Origin: Candidatus Falkowbacteria bacterium
GTDB taxonomy: Bacteria > Patescibacteriota > Patescibacteriia > Patescibacteriales > UBA12465
Length of the DNA: 64,000 nucleotides
Direction: 5' to 3'
Assembly: GCA_037132255.1 (NCBI GenBank)
Contig: JBAXPN010000001.1
Location: 191,395-255,394, forward strand
The position numbers and the translations under genes were made by a program. Under the pieces are notes generated by a model, which worked only from the letters and a program-made list of their open reading frames with translations, was not told the origin of the DNA and did not search any database. Of the stretch, positions 11,150 to 62,270 are shown in pieces (within the stretch, counting starts at the first letter, position 1; the number at the start of each line of letters is the position of its first letter).

Positions 11150-11545
11150 TATTAGGGCAAGCGGGCAATCGCTCTTTTTTGTAGTTTACTATAAAAGGGA
11201 GAGGAAAGTCCGGACTTCATCGCTTGGTAACAAGCGGAGACGATAGTGGGTAACGCCCACCGAGGTGTTTAATTTATTAAACGCTTTAGGGAAAGTGCCA
11301 CAGAGACAATACTAATTCTGGAATTTATTGACAGAATCAAAGGTGAAAAGATGCTGGGTGTTTCTTCTTGAAGCTACTGGCATCGGCCTCCGGTGACGGA
11401 GATGCCGTGGTAAACCCTATCAGAAGCAAGAGCAAACTTTTGCCAGTTTGGCAAAAAGACAAGTAGCTCGCATGAGCTTATTAGTAATAATAAGCCTAGA
11501 TAAATGATTGCTAGAACAGAATCCGGCTTACGGCTACCCTAATAA
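11150..11545 (+). ncRNA. rnpB: RNase P RNA, bacterial type
   Basis: Carries the universally conserved P4 strands GAGGAAAGTCCGGACTTC (5') and ACAGAATCCGGCTTACGGC (3'), plus GGTAACGCCCACC and GGTGAAA elements. The 5' ATTAGGG... and 3' ...CCCTAAT ends can pair as P1. The length of about 395 nt fits. Confidence 0.85.
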
Positions 11546-17155: not shown

Positions 17156-17159
17156 CATG

Positions 17160-17243
17160 TGCCGCGAGAGGGAATCGAACCCTCACTAGGTCGCCCCAAC
17201 ACGATTTTGAGTCGTGCGCGTCTACCAGTTCCGCCATCGCGGC
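17160..17243 (-). tRNA. tRNA-Leu (anticodon CAA)
   Basis: The reverse complement reads GCCGCGA TG GCGGAACTGGTAGACGCGC CACGA-CTCAAAA-TCGTG TTGGGGCGACCTAGT GAGGG-TTCGATT-CCCTC TCGCGGC A. This gives a 7-bp acceptor, U33, anticodon CAA and the long variable arm typical of Leu. No CCA is encoded. Confidence 0.85.
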
Positions 17244-38637: not shown

Positions 38638-38708
38638 TCGGGGATCGTCTAACGGTAGGACAACAGGTTCTGGTCCTGTTTATTGGGGTTCGAATCCCTA
38701 TCCCCGAG
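38638..38708 (+). tRNA. tRNA-Gln (anticodon CUG)
   Basis: TCGGGGA acceptor (U1:A72, typical of bacterial Gln), anticodon arm ACAGG-TTCTGGT-CCTGT giving anticodon CTG, and T-arm TGGGG-TTCGAAT-CCCTA. No CCA is encoded. Confidence 0.85.
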
Positions 38709-38847
38709 CACTGAAGAAAAATCGCTTTTATTGATGATTTCACCGAAGGATTATGATAATTTTTTCAATAAATTAAGAAATGGTAAATGGAATGATTTTG
38801 TTTCTACCCTGGAAATTGACTTAGAACAAATATAAAAAAACTCTAAC

Positions 38848-42179: not shown

Positions 42180-43721
42180 ATGATATTTTGGGTATTGTAT
42201 TTTAGTGCTATAGCGTATTTTCAGATATCCAATACGATTAACGCGAATGCCTTTCTTAATCTGGGACTCTGCCTTTTTGTATTTATTCCGGTTCCTGAGA
42301 ATTTAAAGAGTAAAAAAATAATAAATATTATACGGACGCTTATTGCCTATATTCTTGCAATAACTTTATTATGGTCCGAATCTTATTTACCCCCCTTTAA
42401 AGTTATTTGGAATTTTTTTGTGCGTCCTGAGCTGCGACCAAGCCTGAGCTATATTTTGAATTTTGTGAACTCATTTTTCCAAATAAAATCTCTTCTTATT
42501 GTTTTAGCGATAATTACCATAGCATTACTTTTTAAATATACTAAACTAAAAAAAATCTCTCCAGCATTTTTTGCGATTTGCATCTTGATTCTATTCATTA
42601 CACAAAAGACAGCCATCAGCAAGGATTTTATTGATCGTTTCTATGCGAAAGAAGCGGCAAGATCATTCAGTATTTCGGAAAATCCGCAGAATAATTTCGA
42701 TGTAATAATTCTACAAATATGTTCGTTGTCCTGGGATGATTTGCAATACGCCAATACTGACGCAAAGTCTTTATTACGAAAATTTGATTATGTTTTCACC
42801 AATTTTAATTCAGCTACCCCATATAGCGATCCAGCAGCTCTTCGATTATTACAATCGGGTTGTGGACAAAAAACTGAGGGAGAATTATTTGCCACAGCTC
42901 CTGACAAATGTTATCTTTTAAACAATTTCCGAGCTCTAGACTATTCGACCTATTCCGCCTGGAATCATGATGGAAATTATTCAGACTTTAAATCCATAGT
43001 TCCTAAATACGGCAAGGCAGACCAGCCAATCAATATCAGCAGCCTGAAGCCGACTGAATTAAGTTTTGATAATGCGCCTATTTACCGTGATGGGGAGGTC
43101 TTGGATTTATGGCTCAAACAAAGAGAAACTAGCGGTAAGAAGTCTCTATTATTTTATAATAGTATTAGCCTGCATACAGGTTCGAGCTACATAGACGGCC
43201 AAAAATTATCTGAAAAGGATGAATATTCTTTGGCTTCAAAAAATGTTTTTAGCGATCTTGATAGTTTCCTGGATAAAATTAAGGCCAGTCAGCGCAATAC
43301 AATCGTTATATTATTAGGTGAACACGGGGCGGCGATTAGCGGCTCTAGCGTCCAGCCATCGACGGTCAGGGATATTCCGCTACCTTCGATCACGCAGGTG
43401 CCAGCGGCTGTAAAAATATTTGGACCTGGCTTTAATAGTGAAAACCCAAACAAAACAAGCATTATTAGTGATCCGGTTAGTTATACAGCTTTAGTCAAAA
43501 TTATCTCAAATGTTTTAGAAACCAACCCACAAAGTAGGCAAGAGCTACAAAATGCTAAGGTTGATAATAATTTACCGTTAACCGATCTTGTATCAGAATC
43601 TGAGAGCAGTATTGTATTCCAGGACGCGAGCGGGGTATTCTATAAATCTAAAAAAGATAAAAATTGGAATCAATTACCAAGCTCTTTTATGGTCAAGCCA
43701 GCGAACTATTTAGCGAATTAA
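42180..43721 (+). CDS. Membrane protein with a C-terminal alkaline-phosphatase-superfamily-like domain; candidate BcsG-like (phosphoethanolamine transferase) homologue
   Basis: Four or five N-terminal TM helices, then a ~350-aa extracytoplasmic domain containing ...VIILQICSLSWDDLQY... and ...VILLGEHGAAISG.... The Glu-His pair (rather than Asp-His) and a CSLSW-like nucleophile motif match what I recall for E. coli BcsG. It lies immediately upstream of the cellulose-synthase-family GT2. Confidence 0.4.
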   Translation: MIFWVLYFSAIAYFQISNTINANAFLNLGLCLFVFIPVPENLKSKKIINIIRTLIAYILAITLLWSESYLPPFKVIWNFFVRPELRPSLSYILNFVNSFFQIKSLLIVLAIITIALLFKYTKLKKISPAFFAICILILFITQKTAISKDFIDRFYAKEAARSFSISENPQNNFDVIILQICSLSWDDLQYANTDAKSLLRKFDYVFTNFNSATPYSDPAALRLLQSGCGQKTEGELFATAPDKCYLLNNFRALDYSTYSAWNHDGNYSDFKSIVPKYGKADQPINISSLKPTELSFDNAPIYRDGEVLDLWLKQRETSGKKSLLFYNSISLHTGSSYIDGQKLSEKDEYSLASKNVFSDLDSFLDKIKASQRNTIVILLGEHGAAISGSSVQPSTVRDIPLPSITQVPAAVKIFGPGFNSENPNKTSIISDPVSYTALVKIISNVLETNPQSRQELQNAKVDNNLPLTDLVSESESSIVFQDASGVFYKSKKDKNWNQLPSSFMVKPANYLAN

Positions 43722-43817
43722 AAAATGAGCCGCGAGGCTCTTTTTTGAAATAGCAAGCTTATTTAATATATGGTATATTAAATATGTGGAATTTAAGCAA
43801 AACTAAAGCCTTGCCAG

Positions 43818-45356
43818 GTGAAGAAAAGAACTCGAATATATTTAATTCTATTCAGTCTAGCAGCGCTAGGCTTATTTGTGTATTTTGGGGTTCGCCTCTA
43901 TGTCTTTTTTTCCAATGGTCATGGATTCTTAAACGTTACAATTTCCTTTTTTCTTTTACTAGCCGAAACTCATTCTATTCTGCATTCACTGGGTTTTATA
44001 ATTGGTCTTATTAGACTTCGTAATACTAGTGACGAACACAACCGTCACGCAAAGCTTGATCGAAATAATTTACCATCCGTCAGCATTCTGATACCAGCGA
44101 GAAACGAACCTTTAGACATACTCGAGATTACCTTTATCTCAGTTGTTTCTCTGGATTATGTAAATAAAAAAATTGTCTTTCTGGATGGCTCGGATGAAAA
44201 ATATTTAGCCGATAATAAAAACCTTGCCCTAAAATACGGTATCGACTACTTTCATCCAAACGAAAAACCAAAAAGTAAAGCAGAAATAGTAAATAAGTAT
44301 TTGCCGAGCATTTTAAGTAAGTACATAACAATTTTTGATGCCGATCAAAACCCCTTACCAGAATTTTTAATGGAAACTGTCGGACTAGCTGAGTATTCAA
44401 ATAAAATCGGCTTCATTCAAACGCCACAACTATACTCGAATCTTAACGCCAGTCCGATCGCCCGCGGCGCTGCCCTCCAGCAATCAATTTTTTATGAAAA
44501 TGTCTGCGAGGCGAAAGGGAAGTCTGGCGCTATGTTTTGTTGTGGCACGAACTTCCTTATGCAAACAGTTGCCTTGAAAAAAGTCGGAGGATTTGACGAG
44601 GACTCTGTGACTGAAGATTTTGCAACCTCCGTTAAAATTCATTCTTTAGGCTATCGTTCAATATACTATAACCACGTCAGAGTTTTCGGTATGGCTCCTG
44701 AAACTTTACCAGCCTATCTTAAACAACAATTTCGCTGGTCTGCGGGTTCGGTTGGTGTTTTACGCCGCCTGGTGATTGATTCTTGGAATGGTAAATTACA
44801 CCTCCGCATTTCCCAAGTTTGGGAATACTTTCTTTCAGCAACCTATTATTTCGTTGGCTGGTCATTCTTAATTTTAATGCTTTGTCCGATTCTTTATTTA
44901 TTATTTGATGTGCCGACATACTTTGCGAGTCCATATCTTTATCTCGGAACATTTATCCCTTACTACGTTCTAATGATGATTACTTTCTATTCAACCATGA
45001 AAAGAAGGCATTATAAAATGAAAGATGTTTTCAATGGCATTATCATGGGTTCATTAAGTTATCCGGTACTCATAAAATCAACCACGGCCGCAATTTTAGG
45101 AAAAAGAGTAACTTTTGAAATCACTGATAAAGGCAAATCAGGAAAACTAAGTTTTCTCAGTTTATGGCCTTGGACAATAATGATCGCCTTAAATATACTC
45201 GCAATCACTAACGGCCTACTTCATTTTTCTGAAAACCCCTACGCAATAATCGTAAATATTGTTTGGTGCACTTACCACGCCTTACTACTTTCACGTGTAT
45301 TTAAATTAAACAGAACTCCAATAATAGAAAAAAATAATGTCCTAAACTATACTTAA
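43818..45356 (+). CDS. Processive family-2 glycosyltransferase of the cellulose synthase (BcsA/CelA) family, with no PilZ domain
   Basis: IQTPQ, MFCCGTNF (similar to FFCGS), VTEDFATSVKIHSLGYRSIY (the TED ... H..GW.S.Y block) and QQFRWSAGS (QxxRW). TM helices flank both sides of the catalytic domain. Confidence 0.7.
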   Translation: MKKRTRIYLILFSLAALGLFVYFGVRLYVFFSNGHGFLNVTISFFLLLAETHSILHSLGFIIGLIRLRNTSDEHNRHAKLDRNNLPSVSILIPARNEPLDILEITFISVVSLDYVNKKIVFLDGSDEKYLADNKNLALKYGIDYFHPNEKPKSKAEIVNKYLPSILSKYITIFDADQNPLPEFLMETVGLAEYSNKIGFIQTPQLYSNLNASPIARGAALQQSIFYENVCEAKGKSGAMFCCGTNFLMQTVALKKVGGFDEDSVTEDFATSVKIHSLGYRSIYYNHVRVFGMAPETLPAYLKQQFRWSAGSVGVLRRLVIDSWNGKLHLRISQVWEYFLSATYYFVGWSFLILMLCPILYLLFDVPTYFASPYLYLGTFIPYYVLMMITFYSTMKRRHYKMKDVFNGIIMGSLSYPVLIKSTTAAILGKRVTFEITDKGKSGKLSFLSLWPWTIMIALNILAITNGLLHFSENPYAIIVNIVWCTYHALLLSRVFKLNRTPIIEKNNVLNYT

Positions 45357-50763: not shown

Positions 50764-51168
50764 ATGACTAAAAAAATGAAAATAATTTCGATTTTACTCG
50801 CTTCGGCAATTATTGTTGTAGCCGTGCTTGTATATTCCAATTCAAAATCAAAAACTAATTTAAATATTCAAAACACCAACAGCAATTCTTCCGTTTCCTT
50901 CGCCCAGTGTCTAAAGAACCAGGGAGCCTTGTTCTATGGCGCTTTTTGGTGCTCACATTGTCAAAATCAAAAAGCAATGTTCGGCTCAGATGCGAAAGAT
51001 TTACCATTTGTTGAATGCTCAACTCCTGACGGTCAGGGTCAATTAGCAATTTGCCAACAAAATAACATTCCTGGCTATCCAACCTGGGTTTTTAAAGACG
51101 GCTCTCGCCTATCAGGCGAATTAACGCTAACACAGCTCGCTGAAAAAACTGGATGCACCCAAAAGTAA
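50764..51168 (+). CDS. Membrane-anchored thioredoxin-fold (DsbA/BdbD-like) protein
   Basis: N-terminal TM and the active site FWCSHCQ (CxxC). It is paired with the downstream DsbB-like gene. Confidence 0.6.
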   Translation: MTKKMKIISILLASAIIVVAVLVYSNSKSKTNLNIQNTNSNSSVSFAQCLKNQGALFYGAFWCSHCQNQKAMFGSDAKDLPFVECSTPDGQGQLAICQQNNIPGYPTWVFKDGSRLSGELTLTQLAEKTGCTQK

Positions 51169-51186
51169 ATTAAAAGAAAAATTGAT

Positions 51187-51729
51187 ATGATTGAAAATTT
51201 TAATCAAGTTATCGGAGCCCTAACAATATTTGCTCAAATAGCAAGCATCAGCGGCCTCGTCTATTTATTCTTACCAAATATAAAGCATAATATCCGTCTC
51301 GATAATTTTATTAGAAACTGGGGAGTTCCGCTCACATTTATAATCGCTTTAACAGCTACACTGGGAAGTCTTTTTTATTCTGAGATTGCCGGTTATCCAC
51401 CCTGCGAATTATGTTGGTATCAAAGAATATTCATGTACCCTCAGGTTCTCCTACTCGGACTTGCCTCTTGGCGGAAAGAAAATAATATAATCCGCTACAG
51501 TCTAATTCTAACTGTCATCGGTTTTATTATTGCCGCATACCATAGCTATATTGCCTATGCTGGATCAAGCTCAGCTGCTTGCTCAGCCGTCGCCTTTACG
51601 GGAATATCCTGCCTGCGCCGATATGTTTTAACTTTTAACTATATAACCATCCCCATAATGGCCGCCAGTGCTTTCGCGCTTATGATTGTTATCCTATTAA
51701 ATGTGAATAAAATTCGCAAAAGAAACTAA
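51187..51729 (+). CDS. Disulfide bond formation protein B (DsbB/BdbC family)
   Basis: Four TM helices. CELCWYQRIFMYP is the first periplasmic CxxC loop, and a second Cys pair is in ...SAACSAVAFTGISC.... Confidence 0.7.
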   Translation: MIENFNQVIGALTIFAQIASISGLVYLFLPNIKHNIRLDNFIRNWGVPLTFIIALTATLGSLFYSEIAGYPPCELCWYQRIFMYPQVLLLGLASWRKENNIIRYSLILTVIGFIIAAYHSYIAYAGSSSAACSAVAFTGISCLRRYVLTFNYITIPIMAASAFALMIVILLNVNKIRKRN

Positions 51730-51817
51730 TAGCGGTCGCAATTTAGCTAAAAATAAACAAATATATAAAAAACACTCTCTCCGGAAAGTGGTTTTTTTAT
51801 TATAGCTCTCACATCTA

Positions 51818-51846
51818 TTGACAAATATCAAATTAGGTGATATTAT
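51818..51846 (+). promoter_or_regulatory. Consensus-like sigma70 promoter (TTGACA-17-TATTAT)
   Basis: -35 TTGACA at 51818-51823, a 17-nt spacer, and -10 at 51841-51846. It lies downstream of the dsbB terminator-like hairpin and about 110 bp upstream of the DUF1294 gene. Confidence 0.5.
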
Positions 51847-51958
51847 AGAATGTTAAACAAAAAATATATGGGATTCTTAGACGCATTAATCGGCCAAATT
51901 CTTGGCGGAGCGAAAAAATAATTTAATAATTTGTTGATTAAAAACGCCAAAAAGCGCC

Positions 51959-52315
51959 ATGATTTTTTTGTGTCTTAAAAAGCGACCCCCGATGTCGTTT
52001 TATGTTATAATTTTATATATGGCAATTGAAGTAATTATAAAATATTTAACTTATCTAATTATTGCAATTAATCTGCTTTCATTTTTTATTGTTTTTTTGG
52101 ATAAGAAAAAAGCAGAAAATGAAACAGAGAGAATTAGCGAAAAGACCTTATTTGCCTTGGCTATTCTTTTTGGTGGTATCGGAATATATTTTGCTATGTT
52201 TAGCTTTCATCATAAAACAAAAAAATGGTATTTCGTTTTAGGAATACCATTTATAATCGCCGCTAATATTTATCTACTGAATATTGCTTTAAACTTTTTA
52301 AATAGACAAGTCTAA
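51959..52315 (+). CDS. DUF1294 membrane protein
   Basis: ...ISEKTLFALAILFGGIGIYFAMFSFHHKTKKWYF... matches the DUF1294 core. Confidence 0.55.
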   Translation: MIFLCLKKRPPMSFYVIILYMAIEVIIKYLTYLIIAINLLSFFIVFLDKKKAENETERISEKTLFALAILFGGIGIYFAMFSFHHKTKKWYFVLGIPFIIAANIYLLNIALNFLNRQV

Positions 52316-54091
52316 CCATTCCTCCTCAAGGGATTTAATTTCTGCCTCAATATTATCTAATTCGGCTTTTTTGTTTGAATCGTAATTTACAATATTATCC
52401 AAAAAATATTGATGAATTGCTGAGCGCTCCTCAGATAGTTTTGTTAATTTACTTTCTAAACTTTTTATTCTTTTCTTATTTTCTTTTTTTAAATCATAAG
52501 ACGAGTTAGCTTTAGCGGACACCGAAACATTTACATCCTCATTACTTGCGACCAGTCGCTTTTCTAATTGAGAAACATAATCTTCGTAGTCATGATAATG
52601 GCGCTTAACTCGACCTTCAGTAATTTCAATTATTTCGCTTGCCAGCATATTCGCAAAGGTTCGGTCATGGCTTGTAAATATTATGGTGCCATTGAACTCA
52701 ACTAAGGCCGCCCCTAGAGCCTCTATAGTCTCAAAATCAAGATGATTAGTCGGTTCATCGAGAATTAGGACGTCTGGCTTGCCAAGCAACAGGCCGGCCA
52801 ATATTAGGCGTGATTTCTCGCCGCCGCTTAAAACACCGACGGTCTTTTTTAAGTCATCACCGGAAAACAGAAAATCACCCGCCATTTGCAAAACTTTTTC
52901 GGTTTTTAAATTAACATCAGCCAAACGACGTAAATAATCACCGAGTTGTTCGTCCGGATTTAAGTCGTGAGCGGATAGTTGAGCATAGTAAGCAATTTTT
53001 AAATCGGCGAACCAGGAATATTTACCGGTAATCGGCGTTAATTCTCCTGCTAATGTTTTTAAAAAAGTACTTTTGCCCTGACCGTTATCCCCAACAACAA
53101 TTATTTTTTCTCCGCTTTTGACATCAAAATCAAAACCCGAGGCTAATACTTTGCTATCATAACCAATAGCCATATCTCGAATCGCTAAAACGCGATTTTT
53201 CTTTTTTTCAATCGGCGGAATATTTATTCGGACATTACTTGAATTATGTTCGATACTGATTTTATGCGTTTGTAGTTTATCAATTTTCTTGATGAAAGCC
53301 TGAGCCTGAGCCGCCTTCGAAGACTTATAGCGAAAACGGTCGACGAAATCTTGCATATGTTTCTGCTCGCGAACTAATTTCTCGTTTATTTTATGTTCAC
53401 TCGCCGCACGTTGTTCCTTGTAAGCCAAGTAGGCTTCAAGGGGCTGTGGAAAAGCTAAACAACGATGCGGAGTGATTTCCATTGTTTCTAAGCAGGTATT
53501 TTTCAAAAACTCCCGATCATGAGAAATTATCAGAAAACCGCCTTTATATGTTTTTAAAAATTCTTCGAGCAATAATATAGTTCCTAAGTCTAAATAATTA
53601 GTTGGTTCGTCAAGTAGAAATAGATTAGGTTCAAGAAGTAACATGGCACTTAACTTTAAACGCATTTGCCACCCGCCCGAAAGCTCAGTAATCGAACACT
53701 CTAATTGCTCGGCCGTAAATCTAAAACGACTTGCTACCTTTCGGCATTGCCATTCTTCTCTTGCGCTCATCCTCATAAGATAAGTTAAACCATTTTCGCT
53801 CACTAGAAAATTATTCTCTTGCTCAATATAGCCGATCTTTGCCTCACGACTAATAATGACGTTACCGCCATCAGCCTCTTCGCTGCCAAGGATAATTCTA
53901 AACATTGTTGATTTACCGGCGCCATTTCGTCCGATAATACCAATCTTCTGCTTTGGAAAAACACTAAAAGAGAGGCCAGAGAAAATTGTCTGACCACTAT
54001 ATTTCTTGCTCAAATTATTAACTTGAAGAAAGGGAACCATAAAATATGTATTTAATACTAATATAATAGATATATTCTGGTAATTGAGCAA
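52298..54091 (-). CDS. ABC-F family ATPase (tandem ABC domains, no TMD; EttA/Uup-like translation factor)
   Basis: Two Walker A motifs (GRNGAGKST, GDNGQGKST), two ABC signature motifs (LSGGWQMRL, LSGGEKSRL), and an inter-domain linker plus C-terminal coiled coil. Confidence 0.85.
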   Translation of the reverse strand: MLNYQNISIILVLNTYFMVPFLQVNNLSKKYSGQTIFSGLSFSVFPKQKIGIIGRNGAGKSTMFRIILGSEEADGGNVIISREAKIGYIEQENNFLVSENGLTYLMRMSAREEWQCRKVASRFRFTAEQLECSITELSGGWQMRLKLSAMLLLEPNLFLLDEPTNYLDLGTILLLEEFLKTYKGGFLIISHDREFLKNTCLETMEITPHRCLAFPQPLEAYLAYKEQRAASEHKINEKLVREQKHMQDFVDRFRYKSSKAAQAQAFIKKIDKLQTHKISIEHNSSNVRINIPPIEKKKNRVLAIRDMAIGYDSKVLASGFDFDVKSGEKIIVVGDNGQGKSTFLKTLAGELTPITGKYSWFADLKIAYYAQLSAHDLNPDEQLGDYLRRLADVNLKTEKVLQMAGDFLFSGDDLKKTVGVLSGGEKSRLILAGLLLGKPDVLILDEPTNHLDFETIEALGAALVEFNGTIIFTSHDRTFANMLASEIIEITEGRVKRHYHDYEDYVSQLEKRLVASNEDVNVSVSAKANSSYDLKKENKKRIKSLESKLTKLSEERSAIHQYFLDNIVNYDSNKKAELDNIEAEIKSLEEEWLDLSI

Positions 54092-55603: not shown

Positions 55604-56374
55604 ATGAACACATTTTCAATCATTATCGGACTCGTTATTTTTATCTTAGCGATCTCGCTCAAAGTCGTTAAACAGTACGAACGCGCCGTTATTTTTTTCC
55701 TCGGAAAATATACCGGCATGCGCGGACCAGGTTTGATTTTTCTTGTTCCGGTGTTCGAAAAAATGTCACGCGTCGTCCTGCGAACTGTTACGATGGATAT
55801 TCCATCGCAAAAGATTATCACGCGGGATAATGTATCAATCGATATTGCCGCGGTCGCTTATTATCATATCGTTGATGCCTCTAAGGCGGTAATTGCGATT
55901 GAAAACATTTATCAAGCAGTTAATCAAATCAGCCAAACAACGGTCCGCAATGTCGTCGGGCAATTTAGCCTTGATCAACTCTTGTCGCAAACAGCACAAA
56001 TTAATGAACAAATAAAAAATGTTATCGATACCCATACCGAACCCTGGGGAGCGCAAGTAACAGCTGTTGAAATTAAAGATATATTTCTTCCGGAAAATAT
56101 GCAGAGAGCGATGGCTAAAGAAGCGGAAGCGGAGCGCGAACGTCGCGCCAAGATTGTTGCCGCTGAAGGAGAATTCCAGGCTGCCGAAAAACTTGGTCAG
56201 GCCGCTGATTTAATTTCGGCCCATCCAGTTGCATTGCAATTAAGAACTCTGCAAACTATGGCGGAAATTAGTGTAGAAAAAAATTCTACAATCATTTTTC
56301 CCGCACAATTTATGACAACCGTTGAAGAAGCCATTAAAACAATAAGACGTGAAGAAAATATTATTAAACAATAA
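55604..56374 (+). CDS. SPFH/band-7 (stomatin/prohibitin-like) membrane protein
   Basis: N-terminal TM, the SPFH core (...TRDNVSIDIAAVAYYHIVD...) and a C-terminal coiled coil rich in AEAERER. Confidence 0.8.
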   Translation: MNTFSIIIGLVIFILAISLKVVKQYERAVIFFLGKYTGMRGPGLIFLVPVFEKMSRVVLRTVTMDIPSQKIITRDNVSIDIAAVAYYHIVDASKAVIAIENIYQAVNQISQTTVRNVVGQFSLDQLLSQTAQINEQIKNVIDTHTEPWGAQVTAVEIKDIFLPENMQRAMAKEAEAERERRAKIVAAEGEFQAAEKLGQAADLISAHPVALQLRTLQTMAEISVEKNSTIIFPAQFMTTVEEAIKTIRREENIIKQ

Positions 56375-57302
56375 TAACTATAATCGTATGTTAAAAAAGA
56401 ATATCTTCAAGATAATCGCGGTTATAGCTATCGCCGTTTTAGCTTACTTTGTTTTACAAACTAAGCCAGCAATTAATGAAGCAGTCGTTGTTCCTGGTAT
56501 TAACAATGATAATCTTTTTAACGTAAAAACCTGCGAATACTTGATTGACAAAAATATATCATCTAATTCTCAGTATTTCGGAAATGACGTTAAAGCTGAT
56601 TTTAATAAGGATGGTTTAGAAGATGACGCCTTAATTATTATCCAGAATTCAGAGGGAAGCGGTGTGTTTTATTATATTGTTGCCGCGCTCCGTAGCGAAA
56701 CAGGATGTATTGGCACAAACGCGATTTTGCTAGGAGACCGAATCGCTCCGCAAAATACTGAATATGTAAACGGCGAGATTGTCGTTAATTATGCCGATCG
56801 TCGAGTAAGCGAGGCGATGACCGTCACACCTTCTATTGGTGTATCGCGCTACTTTAAAGTTGAGAACGGAAAATTAATTGAAATTATAAAGGAAGCAGCT
56901 AAAACTCCAAATAATTATAAAAACAGCGAATACGGATTTGAATTAAACTTGCCCGATTCTTGGCTCGGATATTCAATTGTCACTGAAAACTGGAACGGTC
57001 AATTACTTATTGAACCGAACACAAAGTATCAAGGTCCAAAAATATTAATTCGTAATCCGAAGTGGTCAGCGAAAGCACATTGGCAAGATATTCCAGTATT
57101 AGTTTTCACACCAGCGGAATGGAAATTAATCCAGGAAGAGAACTTGGGTATTAGTGCCGCTCCAATTGGTCCAAGCAAGCTCGGAGAAAATTCTGCATAT
57201 ATTTTTGCTCTACCACCACGTTGGCTTGGCTTTACTGATGATTTAGGCCAAGATGAAGCAGCTGAAATTGTAAAAACATTTAAAGCATACGGGATTAAAT
57301 AA
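56349..57302 (+). CDS. Hypothetical membrane-anchored / secreted protein
   Basis: One N-terminal TM (IIAVIAIAVLAYFVL). No recognisable family. An internal ATG at 56388 is an alternative start. Confidence 0.45.
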   Translation: MKKILLNNNNYNRMLKKNIFKIIAVIAIAVLAYFVLQTKPAINEAVVVPGINNDNLFNVKTCEYLIDKNISSNSQYFGNDVKADFNKDGLEDDALIIIQNSEGSGVFYYIVAALRSETGCIGTNAILLGDRIAPQNTEYVNGEIVVNYADRRVSEAMTVTPSIGVSRYFKVENGKLIEIIKEAAKTPNNYKNSEYGFELNLPDSWLGYSIVTENWNGQLLIEPNTKYQGPKILIRNPKWSAKAHWQDIPVLVFTPAEWKLIQEENLGISAAPIGPSKLGENSAYIFALPPRWLGFTDDLGQDEAAEIVKTFKAYGIK

Positions 57303-57370
57303 GCAGAGACACTTGTTTTATTCTAACTTTGAGACTAAACTATTTATACGTTAATCAATTAATTAATATT

Positions 57371-58045
57371 ATGAAAAATTTTAATCGTGATGGGGGAGGA
57401 GATCGTAAATTTGGCGGCGACCGAAAATTCGGTGGTGACTTTAAAAAACGTGGATTTGGTGGAGGAGGCGGAGGCTTCGGCGGAGACAGACGTGACCGTG
57501 GCGACAGACCAGAGATGTTTAAGGCTGTCTGCGCTGATTGTGGCGCTGCTTGCGAAGTTCCATTTAAACCAAGTGGCAATCGACCCGTTTTATGCAGTAA
57601 TTGCTTCAAGGGAAGTGATCGGCCAGAAGGACGTCGTGAAGAAAGAAGATTCAGCGATAAGCCAATGTTTACGGCTACCTGCAGTTCTTGCGGCAATAAC
57701 TGCGAAGTTCCATTTAAGCCAACTAGCGGCAAACCTGTTTTCTGCAGTAATTGCTTCAAGCAAGGCGATGCTCCAAGCGCAGCTCCAAGACATGAGCACC
57801 ATCAAGCTGACAACAGCAAATTAGAAGAAAGACTAGAGGCAATTAACTCTAAATTGGAGAAAATATTAAAGTTTTTGAACCCATCTATTGTTTCTGAGCC
57901 TGTTAAAATCGTTAAAGAAGAAAAGGCAATTGTTAAAGAACTTAAACCGGTAGTAAAACTTAAGGCTTCCAAGCCAGAAAAGAAAGAAAAAGTCGAAACA
58001 AAAAAAGCGATCAAAAAACCAGTAAAAAAATCTGCAAAGAAATAG
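57371..58045 (+). CDS. RGG-box protein with two tandem CxxC-x17-CxxC zinc-ribbon domains and a Lys-rich C-terminal tail (putative nucleic-acid-binding protein)
   Basis: N-terminal RDGGGDRKFGGDRKFGGDFKKRGFGGGGGGFGGDRRDRGDR. Two copies of C-x2-CG-x2-CEVPFKP-x5-PV-x-CSNCF (CADCGAACEVPFKPSGNRPVLCSNC and CSSCGNNCEVPFKPTSGKPVFCSNC) each have exactly 17 residues between the CxxC pairs. The C-terminal tail is KKxKxxKK-rich. The ORF-track start at 57329 is probably too far upstream. Confidence 0.6.
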   Translation: MKNFNRDGGGDRKFGGDRKFGGDFKKRGFGGGGGGFGGDRRDRGDRPEMFKAVCADCGAACEVPFKPSGNRPVLCSNCFKGSDRPEGRREERRFSDKPMFTATCSSCGNNCEVPFKPTSGKPVFCSNCFKQGDAPSAAPRHEHHQADNSKLEERLEAINSKLEKILKFLNPSIVSEPVKIVKEEKAIVKELKPVVKLKASKPEKKEKVETKKAIKKPVKKSAKK

Positions 58046-58168
58046 GGGTTTACTTATTAGTAAATACGTGCTATTATAAAAGGGCATAATTTTATTGGTT
58101 AGAAAAGTCGTCGAGTTTCAAAAATATATCAAAAAAAATTGCAACTTTATTTACTAAGTCTAAAATAA

Positions 58169-58366
58169 ATGACTGGTGTTATCAAAAGTTTAACTGACAA
58201 AGGATTTGGCTTCATCACTGTTGAAGGCCAAGAGAAAGATTTATTCTTTCACAGCAATGCTTTAGTTGGAGTTTCATACAATGAACTTCACGAAGGTCAA
58301 ACTGTTTCTTTTGAGCAGGAACAATCAGCTAAAGGAATGAACGCGGTAAACGTTAAGCTTGCCTAA
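58169..58366 (+). CDS. Cold-shock protein (CspA family)
   Basis: GVIKSLTDKGFGFITVEGQEKDLFFH contains the RNP1/RNP2 motifs. Confidence 0.85.
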   Translation: MTGVIKSLTDKGFGFITVEGQEKDLFFHSNALVGVSYNELHEGQTVSFEQEQSAKGMNAVNVKLA

Positions 58367-58378
58367 TCAATCTTTTAC

Positions 58379-58414
58379 CAAAAAACCCTCTGGTTCAGCC
58401 AGAGGGTTTTTTGT
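58379..58414 (+). terminator. Rho-independent terminator
   Basis: Hairpin CCCTCTGG-TTCAG-CCAGAGGG followed by T6. Confidence 0.85.
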
Positions 58415-58468
58415 TTTCCGAACAAAAATTTTGTGATATAATAATGCTTATTAAATAAATACAAAATT

Positions 58469-59272
58469 ATGAAAAAATTTCTACTAGCGATGATGATTTT
58501 TTCAATTATTTTTGCAGTAAGCGGCGTTGTGCTTGCTCAAGAATTAGAAAAAATTCCTTCTCCTGATCAAATTAAGAATTTTAAAATGATCAAGAAAGAT
58601 GGCGGTGCTTTATTCGGAGTACGAATAAACACAAGTTCAAACCCACTAATACCAAGACAAGAGAGGGCCACTGGCACGCTTGAAAGACAAGAACGCGCTT
58701 CAAGCGAAGTAATACGAGCAACAGGCACATCCCCAATTCTTGAAAAAATATTACATCCAGGTGAAATAAAATTATTTGAAAAAATAAAACAAATCGGAAC
58801 TGCTCTGTGGGGGATTAGAAAGGGTGATGTAAAAAATCCTAATGAGAGCCCAAAGCCAATGGAAGCGAGACCAATATTAGTTAAGCCCGTCGCTGTTCAA
58901 TGCGTTAAAAGCGCAATTGATAAAAAGGATACTTCTTTAACCAGCTCTATGGCTAGCAGTAGCGAGGCGCTGATTTCAACCATTAACAATCGAAATGCCT
59001 GTCAAAAATCAGCTCTAGATAAAACTACTGAGCAAGAACAATTCGAAGCTAATAAGATCTGTGTTAATTCTTTTCAGACAAGCAGCAAAAACACCAACGA
59101 ATCCTTAAAAAAATCCCGGAATGATGCTTGGAAAATTTACCGAGACGATCTTAAAGAGTGCTCAGTATTGCAAAGAGAAAGTAACGCTACTAGCACAATA
59201 TCCGGCGCTACTAGTGCTAATAATGAAATCATGATTAATGATGGCGAAGAAAATAACGAAATTGTTAAATAG
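58469..59272 (+). CDS. Hypothetical secreted protein with an internal duplication
   Basis: Signal peptide; (P/H)(S/G)(D/E)IK.F(K/E)(M/K)IKK.G.ALWG(V/I)R occurs twice (aa ~30-55 and ~95-120). Confidence 0.45.
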   Translation: MKKFLLAMMIFSIIFAVSGVVLAQELEKIPSPDQIKNFKMIKKDGGALFGVRINTSSNPLIPRQERATGTLERQERASSEVIRATGTSPILEKILHPGEIKLFEKIKQIGTALWGIRKGDVKNPNESPKPMEARPILVKPVAVQCVKSAIDKKDTSLTSSMASSSEALISTINNRNACQKSALDKTTEQEQFEANKICVNSFQTSSKNTNESLKKSRNDAWKIYRDDLKECSVLQRESNATSTISGATSANNEIMINDGEENNEIVK

Positions 59273-59296
59273 ATATTTATCTAAATAGTAAAACAA

Positions 59297-59322
59297 AAGA
59301 GAGGACAAAACCTCTTTTTTGT
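59297..59322 (+). terminator. Rho-independent terminator
   Basis: Hairpin GAGAGG-ACAAAA-CCTCT followed by T6. Confidence 0.6.
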
Positions 59323-59380
59323 TTGTTCACGAATATCGGCCATGATATACTTAAAATGAAGTTAACGCCAAAATAATCTT

Positions 59381-60628
59381 ATGAAATACGATTTAGCGAT
59401 AATTGGAGCCGGGCCGGCTGGCCTTATGGCTGCCTGCCGCGCCACTGAACTTGGCGCCTCAGTTATTATTTTAGAAAAAAACAAAAGACCAGGAATAAAG
59501 CTTCTTACGACAGGTGGCGGGCGTTGTAATTTTACCAATAATATTCCCGACCCAAAAATCTTAGCCTCTTATTATCTTCCCAATAATAAATTCCTTATTT
59601 CCGCTTTTTCCCGTTTCGGAAGCAGAGAGACAATTAATTTCTTTAATACTCACGGAGTAACTACAAAAATAGAAGCAAACGGCCGCGTATTTCCGCTTAG
59701 TAATTTAGCGACTGATATTCTAAACGTTCCTCTAAATATAATCAAAAATAATTCCTGCGAGCTGAAATACGGCGCTGAGGTAAAAAAAATTACGAGTCGC
59801 CAGAATAAGATAGAGAAAATTATTTTAAATAATGGAGAAAGTATCACAGCAGATAATTATTTAATTGCGACTGGCGGTCGCTCTTATCCGCTGACCGGAT
59901 CCAGTGGGGAAGCTTACGGCTGGCTCACGCAATTAGGCCATAAGATTATTAAACCCCGACCGGCTTTAGTTGCAATTCACCTCAAAGAAAAATTTATTCC
60001 TGACTTAGAAGGTTTAAGCCTTGAGAATATTAAACTAAATCTTTACGGAAATAATAAAAAAATAAGTGCCGCTCGCGGTGATATAATATTTACGCGAAAT
60101 GGACTAAGCGGTCCCGCCGCTCTTAATCTTAGCCGAGAAATTGATTTGTTTTCGAATCAAAAATACCGCCTTGAACTAGACTTTAAACCGGAAAGTACTG
60201 AGACGGAGTTAGCTAATTATCTCCAAAAAATATTTCACTCCGGACAAAAAATATTTCGCAATATTTTAGAGGGCCTGATTGCGCCAAAATTTATTCCGGT
60301 CTTAATTAAACTTACTGGCATTAATCCCGAGAAGCAGGCAAATTCTATTACCAAAGATGAAAAGACTATAATTATCAATTGTTTAAAAAAATTAGAATTA
60401 ACAGTTCTTGGTCTGGGCGATTTTGATCAGGCCATGGTCACGGCCGGAGGAATCGATTTAAAAGAAGTCGACCCGAAAACCATGCGCTCAAAAATAATTT
60501 CGAACTTATTCTTTGCTGGAGAAATACTGGATTTGACCGGACCAACTGGAGGCTATAATCTGCAACTCTCTTGGTCAACGGGCTATATAGCAGGGGAATC
60601 ATCCATTGACAAAAATATTCACTCGTGA
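59381..60628 (+). CDS. HI0933-family FAD-dependent flavoprotein (BaiN-like / aminoacetone-oxidase-like)
   Basis: DLAIIGAGPAGLMAA Rossmann motif, ...LTTGGGRCNFTN..., and a C-terminal ...FFAGEILD.TGPTGGYNLQ.... Confidence 0.75.
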   Translation: MKYDLAIIGAGPAGLMAACRATELGASVIILEKNKRPGIKLLTTGGGRCNFTNNIPDPKILASYYLPNNKFLISAFSRFGSRETINFFNTHGVTTKIEANGRVFPLSNLATDILNVPLNIIKNNSCELKYGAEVKKITSRQNKIEKIILNNGESITADNYLIATGGRSYPLTGSSGEAYGWLTQLGHKIIKPRPALVAIHLKEKFIPDLEGLSLENIKLNLYGNNKKISAARGDIIFTRNGLSGPAALNLSREIDLFSNQKYRLELDFKPESTETELANYLQKIFHSGQKIFRNILEGLIAPKFIPVLIKLTGINPEKQANSITKDEKTIIINCLKKLELTVLGLGDFDQAMVTAGGIDLKEVDPKTMRSKIISNLFFAGEILDLTGPTGGYNLQLSWSTGYIAGESSIDKNIHS

Positions 60629-60686
60629 TATTATTCTAGTCTAACAAAAGATTCGAATCTCCTTCATATATAAAGTCTATCTAAGT

Positions 60687-60726
60687 AAGTGGCCTTTGAG
60701 AGAAATCGGGTCACTTATTTTTTATT
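60687..60726 (+). terminator. Rho-independent terminator
   Basis: Imperfect hairpin AAGTGGCC...GGTCACTT followed by an A/T-interrupted T run. Confidence 0.5.
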
Positions 60727-62217
60727 ATGAACACTATTACAAGCTCAAAACAAGCTATCTCTTTAAGTAAAAAAACCGCAGAAATTACATTTTCTGATCT
60801 CGGCATCAGTAAATCAATTCTTGAGATTCTGAAGAATCTTAAACTCGAAACGCCAACTCCAATTCAACATCAAGCAATCCCAATCGCTCTCAAGGGACAA
60901 GATATTATTGGAATCGCTCAAACCGGGACTGGCAAAACATTTGCTTTTGGTATCCCAATTTTGCAACGTCTCGGCCTGGAAAAAGGTCAGGCGCTTGTTG
61001 TTGTACCAACCCGCGAATTAGCAATCCAAGTTGGCGATAGTTTAAAAAAATTAGGCATGAGTTTAGGACTCCGAATCGCGACTCTTATTGGTGGCGAAGC
61101 AATAGACCGTCAATTATTCATGCTAAGAAAGAAACCGCATATTATTGTCGCTACCCCCGGTCGTTTACTGGATCACTTAAAACGCCATACTGTTAAACTC
61201 GATCAAATTAAAATACTTGTACTTGATGAAGCCGATATGATGCTTGATTTAGGTTTTGCTCCACAAGTCGAAGAAATTCTCAAGCAAACTCCGAAAGAAA
61301 AACAAACAATGCTATTTTCCGCGACCATGCCAGCAACTATTGCGAAACTTGCCGCTAACCATTTGAAATTACCAATCAGTATTGAAGTTGCACCGCAGGG
61401 AACAACCGCAGAAAGAGTTGAACAAGAAGTCTTTGTTGTTAAACCAGCTGATCGCTTTTCACATCTTGAAAAAATTATTAAAGAACATGAGGGTTCAATC
61501 CTGGTTTTTGTTCGCACCAAACACGGCGTTAAAGAAGTAACCCAAAAATTATTTAACCTCGGACATAAGGCGACTGAGATTCATTCAAATTTATCTTTAA
61601 GTCGTCGTCGCGCCGCGCTTGATGCTTTTAAAAGTATGCACTCAAGAATTCTTGTGGCGACAGATGTGGCTGCGCGTGGTTTAGATGTTAATGGGATCGA
61701 ATTAGTTGTAAATTATAATTTGCCTGACGCATCTTCAGATTATGTCCATCGTATCGGTCGGACTGGTCGTGCGGGAAAAATTGGTAAAGCAATTTCATTT
61801 GCGACTCCTAATCAATTAAAAGATGTTAGAGATATTGAACGCTTAATTAATAAGACATTAGCGATCAAAGAATTTGCTCATTTTGACCAAGTTTCGAGCC
61901 GAAGCTTTGGGCCCCGTTCAGGCGGTGGACGCTCAAATTCAGGCCGACCAAATTCAGGTCGCTCAGGTGGCGCGCGCCAATCAAATAGTGGTCGCTCAAT
62001 TCTTGGACAAAGGCCAAGCGGTTCATATCAATCTAGCCAACCAGGCCAGTCTGGCCAATCAACAAACCAAAGCTCACGACCATCAGGTGTAAGCTCGACC
62101 AACTCTCGATTCGGTAGCGCAAAACCCGGCTTCAAAACAGGCTCCGGACGAACAAGCGGCTCAGCTAGCCGTCGACCTAATCCTCATTTTTTCAGTCGTA
62201 AAAATAACGAAAAATAA
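60727..62217 (+). CDS. DEAD-box ATP-dependent RNA helicase with a ~120-aa C-terminal RGG/SG-rich tail
   Basis: Q-motif; AQTGTGKT (motif I), DEAD (II), SAT (III) and HRIGRTGRAG (VI). The tail reads GPRSGGGRSNSGRPNSGRSGGARQSNSGRS.... Confidence 0.85.
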   Translation: MNTITSSKQAISLSKKTAEITFSDLGISKSILEILKNLKLETPTPIQHQAIPIALKGQDIIGIAQTGTGKTFAFGIPILQRLGLEKGQALVVVPTRELAIQVGDSLKKLGMSLGLRIATLIGGEAIDRQLFMLRKKPHIIVATPGRLLDHLKRHTVKLDQIKILVLDEADMMLDLGFAPQVEEILKQTPKEKQTMLFSATMPATIAKLAANHLKLPISIEVAPQGTTAERVEQEVFVVKPADRFSHLEKIIKEHEGSILVFVRTKHGVKEVTQKLFNLGHKATEIHSNLSLSRRRAALDAFKSMHSRILVATDVAARGLDVNGIELVVNYNLPDASSDYVHRIGRTGRAGKIGKAISFATPNQLKDVRDIERLINKTLAIKEFAHFDQVSSRSFGPRSGGGRSNSGRPNSGRSGGARQSNSGRSILGQRPSGSYQSSQPGQSGQSTNQSSRPSGVSSTNSRFGSAKPGFKTGSGRTSGSASRRPNPHFFSRKNNEK

Positions 62218-62242
62218 TTGAATATATAAATGGATATTAAAA

Positions 62243-62270
62243 GAGAGGACTGTTTGGCCCTCTTTTTTTA
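62243..62270. terminator. Terminator between convergent genes
   Basis: Hairpin GAGGAC...GCCCTC followed by T8. Confidence 0.55.

Follow-up and report, generated by a model that had tools for sequence, protein, structure and literature searches.

A CxxC-x17-CxxC zinc-module protein of Patescibacteria and its linkage to genes for ribosome and RNA functions

Introduction

Near the 3' end of a 64,000-nt stretch of the genome of Candidatus Falkowbacteria bacterium (contig JBAXPN010000001.1, positions 191,395 to 255,394; hereafter the window), the plus strand carries a gene for a 224-aa protein with two CxxC-x17-CxxC modules, a gene for a cold-shock-domain (CSD) protein, csp, and a gene for a DEAD-box RNA helicase. 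What does the two-module protein, here called the CxxC protein, do, and do the genes that surround it point to its function? The original prediction, which was made from the sequence of the window, described an RNA-chaperone neighborhood in which an RGG-type zinc-ribbon protein would bind RNA or form condensates and act with the cold-shock protein and the helicase. The three open reading frames (ORFs) that it reported, at 57371-58045, 58169-58366 and 60727-62217, were all recovered. Below, we examine the family to which the CxxC protein belongs, the architecture of the protein and the genes found next to its homologs, and we weigh the reading that it may handle RNA or ribosomes.

Results

The CxxC Protein Contains Two Conserved Zinc-Type Modules

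The CxxC protein matched TIGR04272 in NCBIfam (E=2.1e-32, 110.5 bits, cut-off 36) and PF23477, zf_Tbcl_2, in Pfam (E=3.8e-32, 110.1 bits, cut-off 27), in both cases over two stretches. The domain had been guessed to be TIGR04272-like, and the profile search returned exactly TIGR04272. The two perfectly spaced modules that had been predicted are located at residues 54-78 and 104-128; both have an exact C-x2-C-x17-C-x2-C pattern, far beyond what is expected by chance, and are 58% identical to each other. In an alignment of 29 homologs, all eight cysteines of the protein are invariant or almost so, and the consensus of the module is M-[HF]-K-A-x-C-x-x-C-G-x-x-C-E-V-P-F-[KR]-P-x-G-x-K-P-V-x-C-S-x-C-F. 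The spacing, which the original prediction had singled out as the feature to be checked in homologs, is conserved, with x17 present in 136 of the 138 modules in 83 homologs from 80 species. Two modules were identified in 55 of these proteins and a single module in 27.

In a model built with AlphaFold2 (AF2) from an alignment, the mean predicted local distance difference test score (pLDDT) of the module blocks was 83-92, the helix at residues 148-169 was modeled with confidence, and residues 1-45 and 175-224 were disordered. A model of the trimmed protein agreed with the full model. The beta-hairpin of the modeled module carries the first CxxC, and a short helix begins at the second; in module 1, these elements correspond to residues 50-63 and 76-82, respectively. 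PF23477 is described in Pfam as a "probable treble clef zinc finger", and the modeled module likewise looks more like a treble clef than like a classical zinc ribbon, a fold defined by two zinc knuckles on a three-stranded beta-sheet with no helix that bears ligands. Two purified small proteins from Methanosarcina mazei that are homologs, A00184 and A01980, bound zinc as measured by inductively coupled plasma mass spectrometry (PMC12704099). The invariant cysteines and the confidently modeled modules suggest one putative zinc ion per module in the window protein.

The domain is catalogued, auto-annotated and functionally uncharacterized, and it is therefore not a new domain. Our search of the literature recovered one relevant paper that names it and none that ties Patescibacteria and zinc fingers to Csp or DEAD-box genes. 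The domain is not mentioned in the supplements of the Southlakia transposon sequencing (Tn-seq) paper.

The Modules Are Flanked by Disordered Regions and a Short Helix

Translation of the CxxC gene most likely starts at the ATG at 57371 and not at the upstream TTG at 57329, since the homologs share an N-terminus of the form M-x-N-F-N-R-G-G. The N-terminal region that follows from this start (Table 1) has an isoelectric point (pI) of 10.9 and contains three copies of GGDR, four copies of FGG and many aspartates. Its description as a eukaryote-like RGG region was overstated: a motif count identified no RGG tripeptide in either the CxxC protein or the window helicase, and only two RG dipeptides in the N-terminus of the CxxC protein. 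The homologs contain between zero and four RGG tripeptides each, such that the Gly/Arg-rich composition is kept and the motif is not. The GC content of the coding region for this segment, 57371-57508, is 51%, as compared to 36.6% for the low-GC window as a whole, and the Gly/Arg composition therefore appears to be selected, against the mutational bias.

The hydrophobic residues of the helix at residues 148-169 are placed at the a and d positions of a heptad, as read from the sequence (L-x3-L-x2-I-x3-L-x2-I-x3-L). We infer from this spacing and from the AF2 model that the helix would form a short coiled coil, which is a likely oligomerization element. The C-terminal tail contains 19 lysines and arginines among its 52 residues and has a pI of 10.1. 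Because the coding region of the tail has a GC content of 31% in a genome of about 37%, its richness in lysine is partly compositional. The pI of the whole protein is 9.7.

The layout, in which one or two modules and a heptad helix stand between a Gly/Arg-rich N-terminus and a Lys-rich tail, is conserved in the 29 aligned homologs and in the 72 bacterial loci of the gene-neighborhood survey described below, and nearly all homologs end in a Lys-rich, KKKK-like tail. The window protein is an ordinary member of its family, and its locus is unremarkable for the lineage.

The Family Is Large and Mostly Restricted to Patescibacteria

A word-indexed search recovered 879 relatives, of which the named ones were annotated in GenBank as "CxxC-x17-CxxC domain-containing protein" from metagenome-assembled genomes of Patescibacteria. 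With a domain-only profile searched against 1.84 billion representatives, 6,906 clusters were identified at E<=1e-3 and 3,922 at E<=1e-10. The family thus comprises at least 6,900 clusters at 50% identity, nearly all of which are from Patescibacteria. A scan of one genome per species confirmed at least 591 stretches. Every one of the best 150 representatives is a stand-alone protein, 138-339 aa in length and with two to five modules, and the module was absent from every protein longer than 300 aa in the 80 loci of the survey.

Outside of the bacteria, DPANN archaea (loci L048, L049, L052, L057, L059, L065 and L068) have proteins of about 100 aa that consist of two modules and lack both tails. 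These are up to 55% identical to the core of the window protein, which suggests that modules have been exchanged between Patescibacteria and DPANN. A contig from the Methanocellaceae (L054) contains four genes for 55-aa single-module proteins, three of which are arranged in tandem.

A relationship to known DNA-repair or translation-factor families, which by the terms of the original prediction would have refuted it, was not found in NCBIfam, Pfam, the Protein Data Bank (PDB), Foldseek or the phage and defense libraries, and the CxxC protein itself had no match in the phage or defense libraries. Some candidate resemblances were considered and set aside. The second finger of the LIM protein CRP1 was recovered from the PDB with a 55-aa archaeal homolog at E=0.014 and was treated as a chance or generic zinc-finger resemblance. 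Archaeal zinc-containing ribosomal chains were recovered by Foldseek at non-significant values (E>=0.37, root-mean-square deviation above 20 Å). The hibernation factors SriA-D were checked, as Methanosarcina ribosome entries were among these non-significant fold hits, and they are unrelated to the family.

Genes for Ribosome and RNA Functions Are Concentrated Next to CxxC Genes

We surveyed the gene neighborhoods of the best 80 species-level loci, with at most 10 kb on each side of the CxxC gene. The ORFs were called and clustered, and families were assigned with NCBIfam and Pfam. The counts below refer to the 72 bacterial loci, which represent the candidate phyla radiation (CPR), unless all 80 are mentioned. 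ABC-F ATPases were the most frequent of the translation and RNA families within 10 kb (16/72), followed by DEAD-box helicases (13/72), TypA/BipA (8/72), Csp (8/72), GreA (6/72), YsxC/EngB (5/72) and YchF (1/72). Across all 80 loci, Csp was identified within 10 kb in 8-11 and a DEAD-box helicase in 13-17.

Many of these genes are immediate neighbors of the CxxC gene. Without exception, the TypA genes (8) and the YsxC genes (5) border directly on it, with YsxC always downstream, and seven of the ABC-F genes do so too. In four loci, csp is directly adjacent and on the same strand, and GreA is located within about 700 nt in three of its six loci. The most common Pfam domains among the 139 immediate neighbors were MMR_HSR1 (13), GTP_EFTU (12, including 8 with BipA_C), ABC_tran (7) and CSD (4).

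To quantify the linkage, the seven families ABC-F, TypA/BipA, YsxC, YchF, Csp, DEAD-box and GreA were pooled. Their density was 25.3 genes per 100 kb at a distance of 0-1 kb from the CxxC gene, 5.1 at 1-2.5 kb, 1.8 at 2.5-5 kb, 2.4 at 5-7.5 kb and 1.4 at 7.5-10 kb. Genes in these families are therefore about 10- to 18-fold denser within 1 kb than at 5-10 kb, the background being that of the outlying stretches of the loci surveyed and not of whole genomes. At least one of them was present within 5 kb in 30 of the 72 loci. The partner links are spread over independent lineages: when the CxxC proteins were clustered at 55% identity, ABC-F was linked to 10 clusters, TypA to 5, Csp to 5, DEAD-box to 3, GreA to 3 and YsxC to 2.

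ABC-F proteins bind the ribosomal E site. The commonest partners, which are also the most strongly linked and the most specific in position, are ribosome-binding NTPases and not RNA chaperones. The theme of the neighborhood is ribosomes and translation in general. The predicted RNA-chaperone neighborhood holds insofar as the linkage to csp and DEAD-box genes is recurrent and survives rearrangement in close relatives; chaperones are not, however, the commonest partners, as seen from the counts for ABC-F (16), TypA (8) and YsxC (5). In the close relatives, with CxxC proteins of 54-63% identity, the ABC-F, CxxC, Csp and DEAD-box genes are kept within about 5 kb despite rearrangement. The gene order in L081 is that of the window, and in L083 the gene for a flavoprotein similar to HI0933 has been relocated upstream. 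In L085, the four genes follow one another directly on a single strand in the order csp, CxxC, ABC-F and DEAD-box, the intervals being 101, 5 and 40 nt. In two DPANN loci (L049 and L065), the CxxC gene is located between gatB/E and a gene for a class II Asp/Asn-tRNA synthetase.

Outside the translation and RNA theme, the HI0933-like flavin adenine dinucleotide (FAD) flavoprotein is found within 10 kb of the CxxC gene in 11/72 loci, a frequency close to that of Csp, and is sometimes directly adjacent.

The csp Gene Has a Conserved Upstream Region and Its Own Terminator

As predicted, csp is located about 120 bp downstream of the CxxC gene and has its own terminator. Its start is 123 nt past the CxxC stop codon, and the terminator (Table 1) was recovered by folding after a simple terminator scan had missed it. 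The DNA between the CxxC gene and csp contains no comparable structure (z = -0.45 upon folding). The product of csp matched PF00313 with 67.8 bits (cut-off 27) and contains the motifs KGFGFI and DLFFH, which are similar to RNP1 and RNP2. No named Csp paralog can be assigned, as the scores were below all equivalog cut-offs in NCBIfam, and the protein is referred to here as a generic CSD protein.

The DNA upstream of csp (58046-58168) is about 90% identical to that in the relatives (L081, 8544-8666; L083, 8778-8897), as compared to only about 60% identity for the flanking CxxC proteins. It contains a box in the presumed 5' untranslated region (5'UTR) that is identical in L081-L084, and a looser GTCGA-N-TTT box is present 45-90 nt upstream of csp in seven of eight other CPR loci (L012, L021, L022, L038, L044, L050 and L064). 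No Rfam families matched around csp. Judging from the sequence conservation, the box may represent a 5'UTR regulatory element that is conserved in Patescibacteria.

The Helicase Is a Generic DEAD-Box Protein With a Basic Tail

The window helicase matched PF00270 with 180.8 bits and PF00271 with 101 bits and contains all of the DEAD-box motifs that were looked for (Q, I, Ia, II, III and VI), namely PTPIQ, AQTGTGKT, PTRELA, DEAD, SAT and HRIGRTGRAG. The scores against the named subfamilies in NCBIfam were 424.6 for CshA (the best, cut-off 646), 376.4 for DbpA (524), 352.5 for RhlE (743) and 334.1 for CsdA (890). Since it falls below every named-subfamily equivalog cut-off, no name more specific than generic DEAD-box RNA helicase is justified. 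The phage and defense libraries returned generic superfamily 2 (SF2) similarity only.

The helicase has a tail of 111 aa (residues 386-496, 61882-62214) with 29 serines, 19 glycines, 14 arginines, four copies of SGR and a pI of 12. The description of a Gly/Arg/Ser-rich tail of about 120 aa was essentially accurate, except that the RGG part of the "RGG/SG" label falls with the absence of that motif. The claim that the composition matches that of the CxxC protein is loose, because enrichment in Gly and Arg is all that the two regions have in common, with Asp and Phe being specific to the N-terminus of the CxxC protein and Ser to the helicase tail. Basic, Arg-rich tails, often with Ser and Gly too, were identified in 9 of the 13 helicases near CxxC genes in the CPR loci. 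Bacterial DEAD-box proteins commonly end in a basic extension of this kind (PMC11260450), and the tail provides no evidence for a special partnership with the CxxC protein.

Features of the Window

The genes at the 3' end of the window are arranged on the plus strand in the order SPFH protein, 317-aa ORF, CxxC gene, csp, 267-aa ORF, HI0933-like flavoprotein and DEAD-box helicase (Table 1). The hairpin downstream of the helicase gene is likely a bidirectional terminator shared with the gene for a phosphoribosyl pyrophosphate (PRPP) synthetase. The 317-aa ORF (56349-57302), which adjoins the CxxC-csp pair on the upstream side, has an N-terminal hydrophobic segment. The 267-aa ORF (58469-59272), located downstream of csp, has an N-terminus that resembles a signal peptide, and a 257-aa ORF is found in the same place in L081. 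Searches of Pfam, NCBIfam and PHROGs gave no match for either the 267-aa or the 317-aa ORF, and a PADLOC search gave none for the former.

Table 1. Positions of genes, protein regions and putative regulatory elements in the window.
Feature	Position	Strand	Basis
ABC-F ATPase gene, 3.3 kb upstream of the CxxC gene	52298..54091	-	Two ABC_tran domains and ABC_tran_Xtn linker
CxxC-x17-CxxC (TIGR04272 / PF23477) protein gene, 224 aa from ATG	57371..58045	+	ORF call, family matches, homologs, shared architecture
CxxC protein residues 1-46, MKNFNR start followed by disordered Gly/Arg/Asp/Phe-rich region	57371..57508	+	pLDDT <50; composition
Putative zinc module 1, residues 47-82, Cys 54, 57, 75, 78	57509..57616	+	Hidden Markov model (HMM) stretch 48-80; pLDDT 84-91; Cys invariant
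Putative zinc module 2, residues 97-132, Cys 104, 107, 125, 128	57659..57766	+	Second HMM stretch; pLDDT 83-92; exact x17
Predicted amphipathic helix, residues 148-169, LEERLEAINSKLEKILKFL	57812..57877	+	AF2 pLDDT ~90; consensus EQFExLNxKLDKILKxL
Lys-rich disordered tail, residues 173-224, and stop codon	57887..58045	+	pLDDT ~40; composition
Promoter-like site for csp, TTTACT-17-TATTAT with upstream TG	58049..58077	+	Scan; kept in L081, L083 and L085 (shifted context)
Box AAAGTCGTCGAGTTT in presumed csp 5'UTR	58104..58118	+	Identical in L081-L084
Cold-shock-domain (csp) gene, 65 aa	58169..58366	+	ORF call; PF00313
Intrinsic terminator, hairpin and U-tract	58379..58413	+	dG -25 kcal/mol, z = -7.75, 0/200 shuffles as stable
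HI0933-like FAD flavoprotein gene	59381..60628	+	TIGR00275, 438 bits
Promoter-like site upstream of helicase, TTGACA-17-TATTAT with TG, 11/12 positions	60606..60634	+	Scan
DEAD-box RNA helicase gene, 496 aa	60727..62217	+	ORF call; PF00270 and PF00271
Hairpin between helicase gene and convergent PRPP-synthetase-like gene	62239..62266	Unassigned	Folding z = -3.25

The ABC-F protein in the window is similar to the ABC-F protein of the relative locus L050 (phmmer E=1.5e-52), and its placement is repeated in the relative loci L081 and L083. It is part of a run on the reverse strand with DsbB and DUF1294 genes (50764-54091) that is syntenic with L081 (2482-5314), and the entire 10-kb region is therefore conserved in the lineage, beyond the CxxC-csp pair. 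A thioredoxin-like gene is located immediately upstream of DsbB.

Elsewhere in the window, a bacterial class A RNase P RNA was identified at 11153-11545 (196 bits), along with a tRNA-Leu(CAA) at 17159-17243 on the minus strand and a tRNA-Gln(CTG) at 38638-38709 on the plus strand. At 42180-45356, a gene for a BcsG-like cellulose-modification protein (PF11658, 382 bits) adjoins a gene for a cellulose-synthase-like family 2 glycosyltransferase, a pairing that is unexpected in a genome with its closest matches in Patescibacteria.

Discussion

Family membership, a conserved architecture, modeled regions of order and disorder and a statistical linkage to other genes have been established here for the CxxC protein. 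Based on the gene linkage and the anatomy of the protein, we suggest that it handles RNA or ribosomes, as a zinc-dependent RNA- or ribosome-associated binding protein, a reading to which we give an even chance of being correct. We infer that such a protein would bind nucleic acids with a preference for RNA over DNA, oligomerize and contact the ribosome. Each module of about 35 residues would hold one zinc ion via its four invariant cysteines and present the conserved aromatic and basic side chains of the pattern M-[HF]-K-A...E-V-P-F-[KR]-P...[KR]-P-V...C-F. The disordered, Gly/Arg-rich N-terminus and Lys-rich C-terminus would add non-specific affinity for the phosphate backbone, and the heptad helix would probably pair or bundle chains into a multivalent particle. 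As the substrate we propose RNA, with ribosomal RNA (rRNA) or the ribosome as the most probable target, either in the course of assembly or when the cell adapts to cold or stress. The CxxC protein may then serve as a passive binder or chaperone beside the energy-using DEAD-box helicase, ABC-F, TypA/BipA and YsxC proteins, and beside the RNA chaperone Csp. Assembly of the 50S subunit at low temperature in E. coli depends on BipA and on DeaD, a DEAD-box helicase, and the RNA chaperone of the cold-shock response is CspA (PMC8313970, PMC1616957). Disordered regions rich in Arg and Gly often serve as RNA-binding elements, and they bind without specificity (PMC9718894).

Several observations weigh against this suggestion. 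The zinc content of the M. mazei homologs is the sole experimental result on any member of the family, and the Lys-rich tails and the GreA neighbors are equally compatible with DNA binding. Among the best 150 representatives, no fusion to a known RNA-binding, ribosomal or CSD domain was identified, with lower-ranking single-module fusions falling outside of this list. A full-length profile searched against all PDB chains recovered nothing significant, the best hit being a helix of the respiratory syncytial virus (RSV) phosphoprotein at E=0.37. Foldseek searches of the PDB with the full model and with a trimmed model of 130 residues gave best E-values of 0.63 and 0.37, respectively, with very high deviations. 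No chain of a solved ribosome matched the CxxC protein in sequence or structure, and no patescibacterial ribosome was among the hits. As for the neighborhood, the CxxC gene, csp and the helicase gene appear to be separate transcription units in the window and not one clean operon; no listed partner was identified within 5 kb in 42 of the 72 CPR loci; unrelated genes recur as well, such as those for the HI0933-like flavoprotein (11 loci), P-type ATPases (10) and cupins (8); and the background density was drawn from the surveyed loci themselves.

A bolder version, which we put forward tentatively and consider doubtful, is that the CxxC protein is an abundant, ribosome-bound factor throughout the Patescibacteria, that is, a lineage-specific ribosomal protein or an assembly or hibernation factor. 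The zinc modules would be placed on the rRNA with tails acting in the manner of the Gly/Arg-rich (GAR) regions of nucleolar proteins, and the protein would work with Csp, DEAD-box, ABC-F and TypA/BipA proteins. DPANN archaea would have the same bare core of two modules, which may have been transferred between these two groups of ultra-small symbionts.

An alternative function is binding of DNA, either as a nucleoid-associated protein or as a general transcription factor, with the modules and a Lys tail similar to that of histone H1 binding and compacting DNA or touching RNA polymerase, and with the translation genes as incidental neighbors. In its small size, its basic charge and its probable oligomerization the protein resembles nucleoid proteins, its conserved Lys-rich tail ends in KKKK, and GreA is found within 10 kb in six of the CPR loci, half of these at close range. 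The authors of the study on the M. mazei proteins also speculate on a role in transcription, by analogy with the zinc ribbons of TFIIB (PMC12704099). However, the adjacent genes mainly code for ribosome-binding NTPases, Csp and DEAD-box proteins and not for DNA metabolism, and no similarity to known DNA-binding families was detected in NCBIfam, Pfam, the PDB or with Foldseek. The richness in lysine is, moreover, partly expected at 37% GC, given the 31% GC of the coding region for the tail, and both tails are missing in the DPANN homologs, which is why the tails cannot be the core function. We consider a DNA-binding role to be unlikely.

It could also be argued that the gene linkage is functionally meaningless, and that the CxxC protein is an abundant housekeeping zinc protein encoded among highly expressed small genes in compact genomes, where Csp, the helicase and the NTPases are not its co-workers. 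This would account for the majority of CPR loci in which listed partners are lacking at 5 kb and for the variation in partner identity among lineages. In the window, csp has its own conserved promoter-like site and terminator, the helicase gene has a promoter-like site of its own, and unrelated genes, for the secreted-looking 267-aa protein and then the HI0933-like flavoprotein, intervene between the two; also, the control was drawn from the same loci and not from whole genomes. On the other hand, the density of 25 genes per 100 kb next to the CxxC gene drops to about 2 only a few kilobases away, the occurrences of TypA and YsxC are all strictly adjacent, and the links recur in independent clusters. 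The quartet of ABC-F, CxxC, Csp and DEAD-box genes survives rearrangement, including an operon-like run with gaps of 5 and 40 nt. Drift by itself would hardly produce such patterns, and we see little chance that the linkage carries no functional meaning.

The least probable alternative, to which we assign a very small likelihood, is that the modules are protein-protein interaction fingers of the LIM or DnaJ type in a protein adaptor or holdase: contacts between proteins are a frequent role of treble-clef fingers and the resemblance to CRP1 is the only marginal one in the PDB, but this resemblance is below significance, the best Foldseek value is E=0.37, and the strongly basic disordered tails at both ends and the RNA and ribosome gene neighbors favor a nucleic acid as the ligand.

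Among known systems, the CxxC protein is closest to the other proteins of the TIGR04272 / PF23477 family, including A00184 and A01980 of M. mazei, which have the same domain, the invariant C-x2-C-x17-C-x2-C pattern and the E-V-P-F-[KR]-P core. The archaeal members of the family differ in that they consist of one module only, with a length of about 55 aa, or, in DPANN, of two modules without tails, with a length of about 100 aa; to this, the window protein adds the Gly/Arg-rich N-terminus, the heptad helix and the Lys-rich tail. A functional analogy is provided by the plant proteins AtCSP3 and WCSP1, in which Gly-rich stretches and zinc knuckles of the CCHC type come after a CSD; the DEAD-box helicase AtRH7 is an interaction partner of AtCSP3 (PMC4846089). 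A cold-shock domain, Gly-rich disorder with zinc fingers and a DEAD-box helicase come together in both systems, although in the window they are encoded by separate adjacent genes. There is no sequence homology between them, and the window modules are of the C4 type with about 35 residues and not CCHC knuckles.

The disordered Gly/Arg/Phe-rich region beside folded modules also resembles the eukaryotic GAR/RGG regions of nucleolin and fibrillarin. Some homologs of the CxxC protein have up to four true RGG tripeptides, whereas the window protein has none and many aspartates, and the resemblance to these regions is one of composition and not of homology, the window protein being bacterial. The window helicase, with its full DEAD-box core and basic disordered tail, is similar to RhlE, CshA and CsdA/DeaD. 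In RhlE, the basic disordered C-terminal tail tunes RNA binding (PMC11260450).

Patescibacteria represent a large share of bacterial diversity and have many conserved proteins without a known role. The layout of the family described here, in which C4 modules and a short coiled coil lie between Gly/Arg-rich disorder and a Lys-rich tail, is fixed and is unusual for a bacterial protein, and the family comprises thousands of clusters. Should the suggested role be false, the family would add one more zinc-finger protein of unknown function to this list. If it is true, the CxxC protein would be a lineage-specific component that has been added to the unusual translation apparatus of the Patescibacteria. 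The documented conservation of the architecture in Patescibacteria and the quantified link to ribosome and RNA genes are what the present analysis adds, and together they provide a testable hypothesis for the function of the family.

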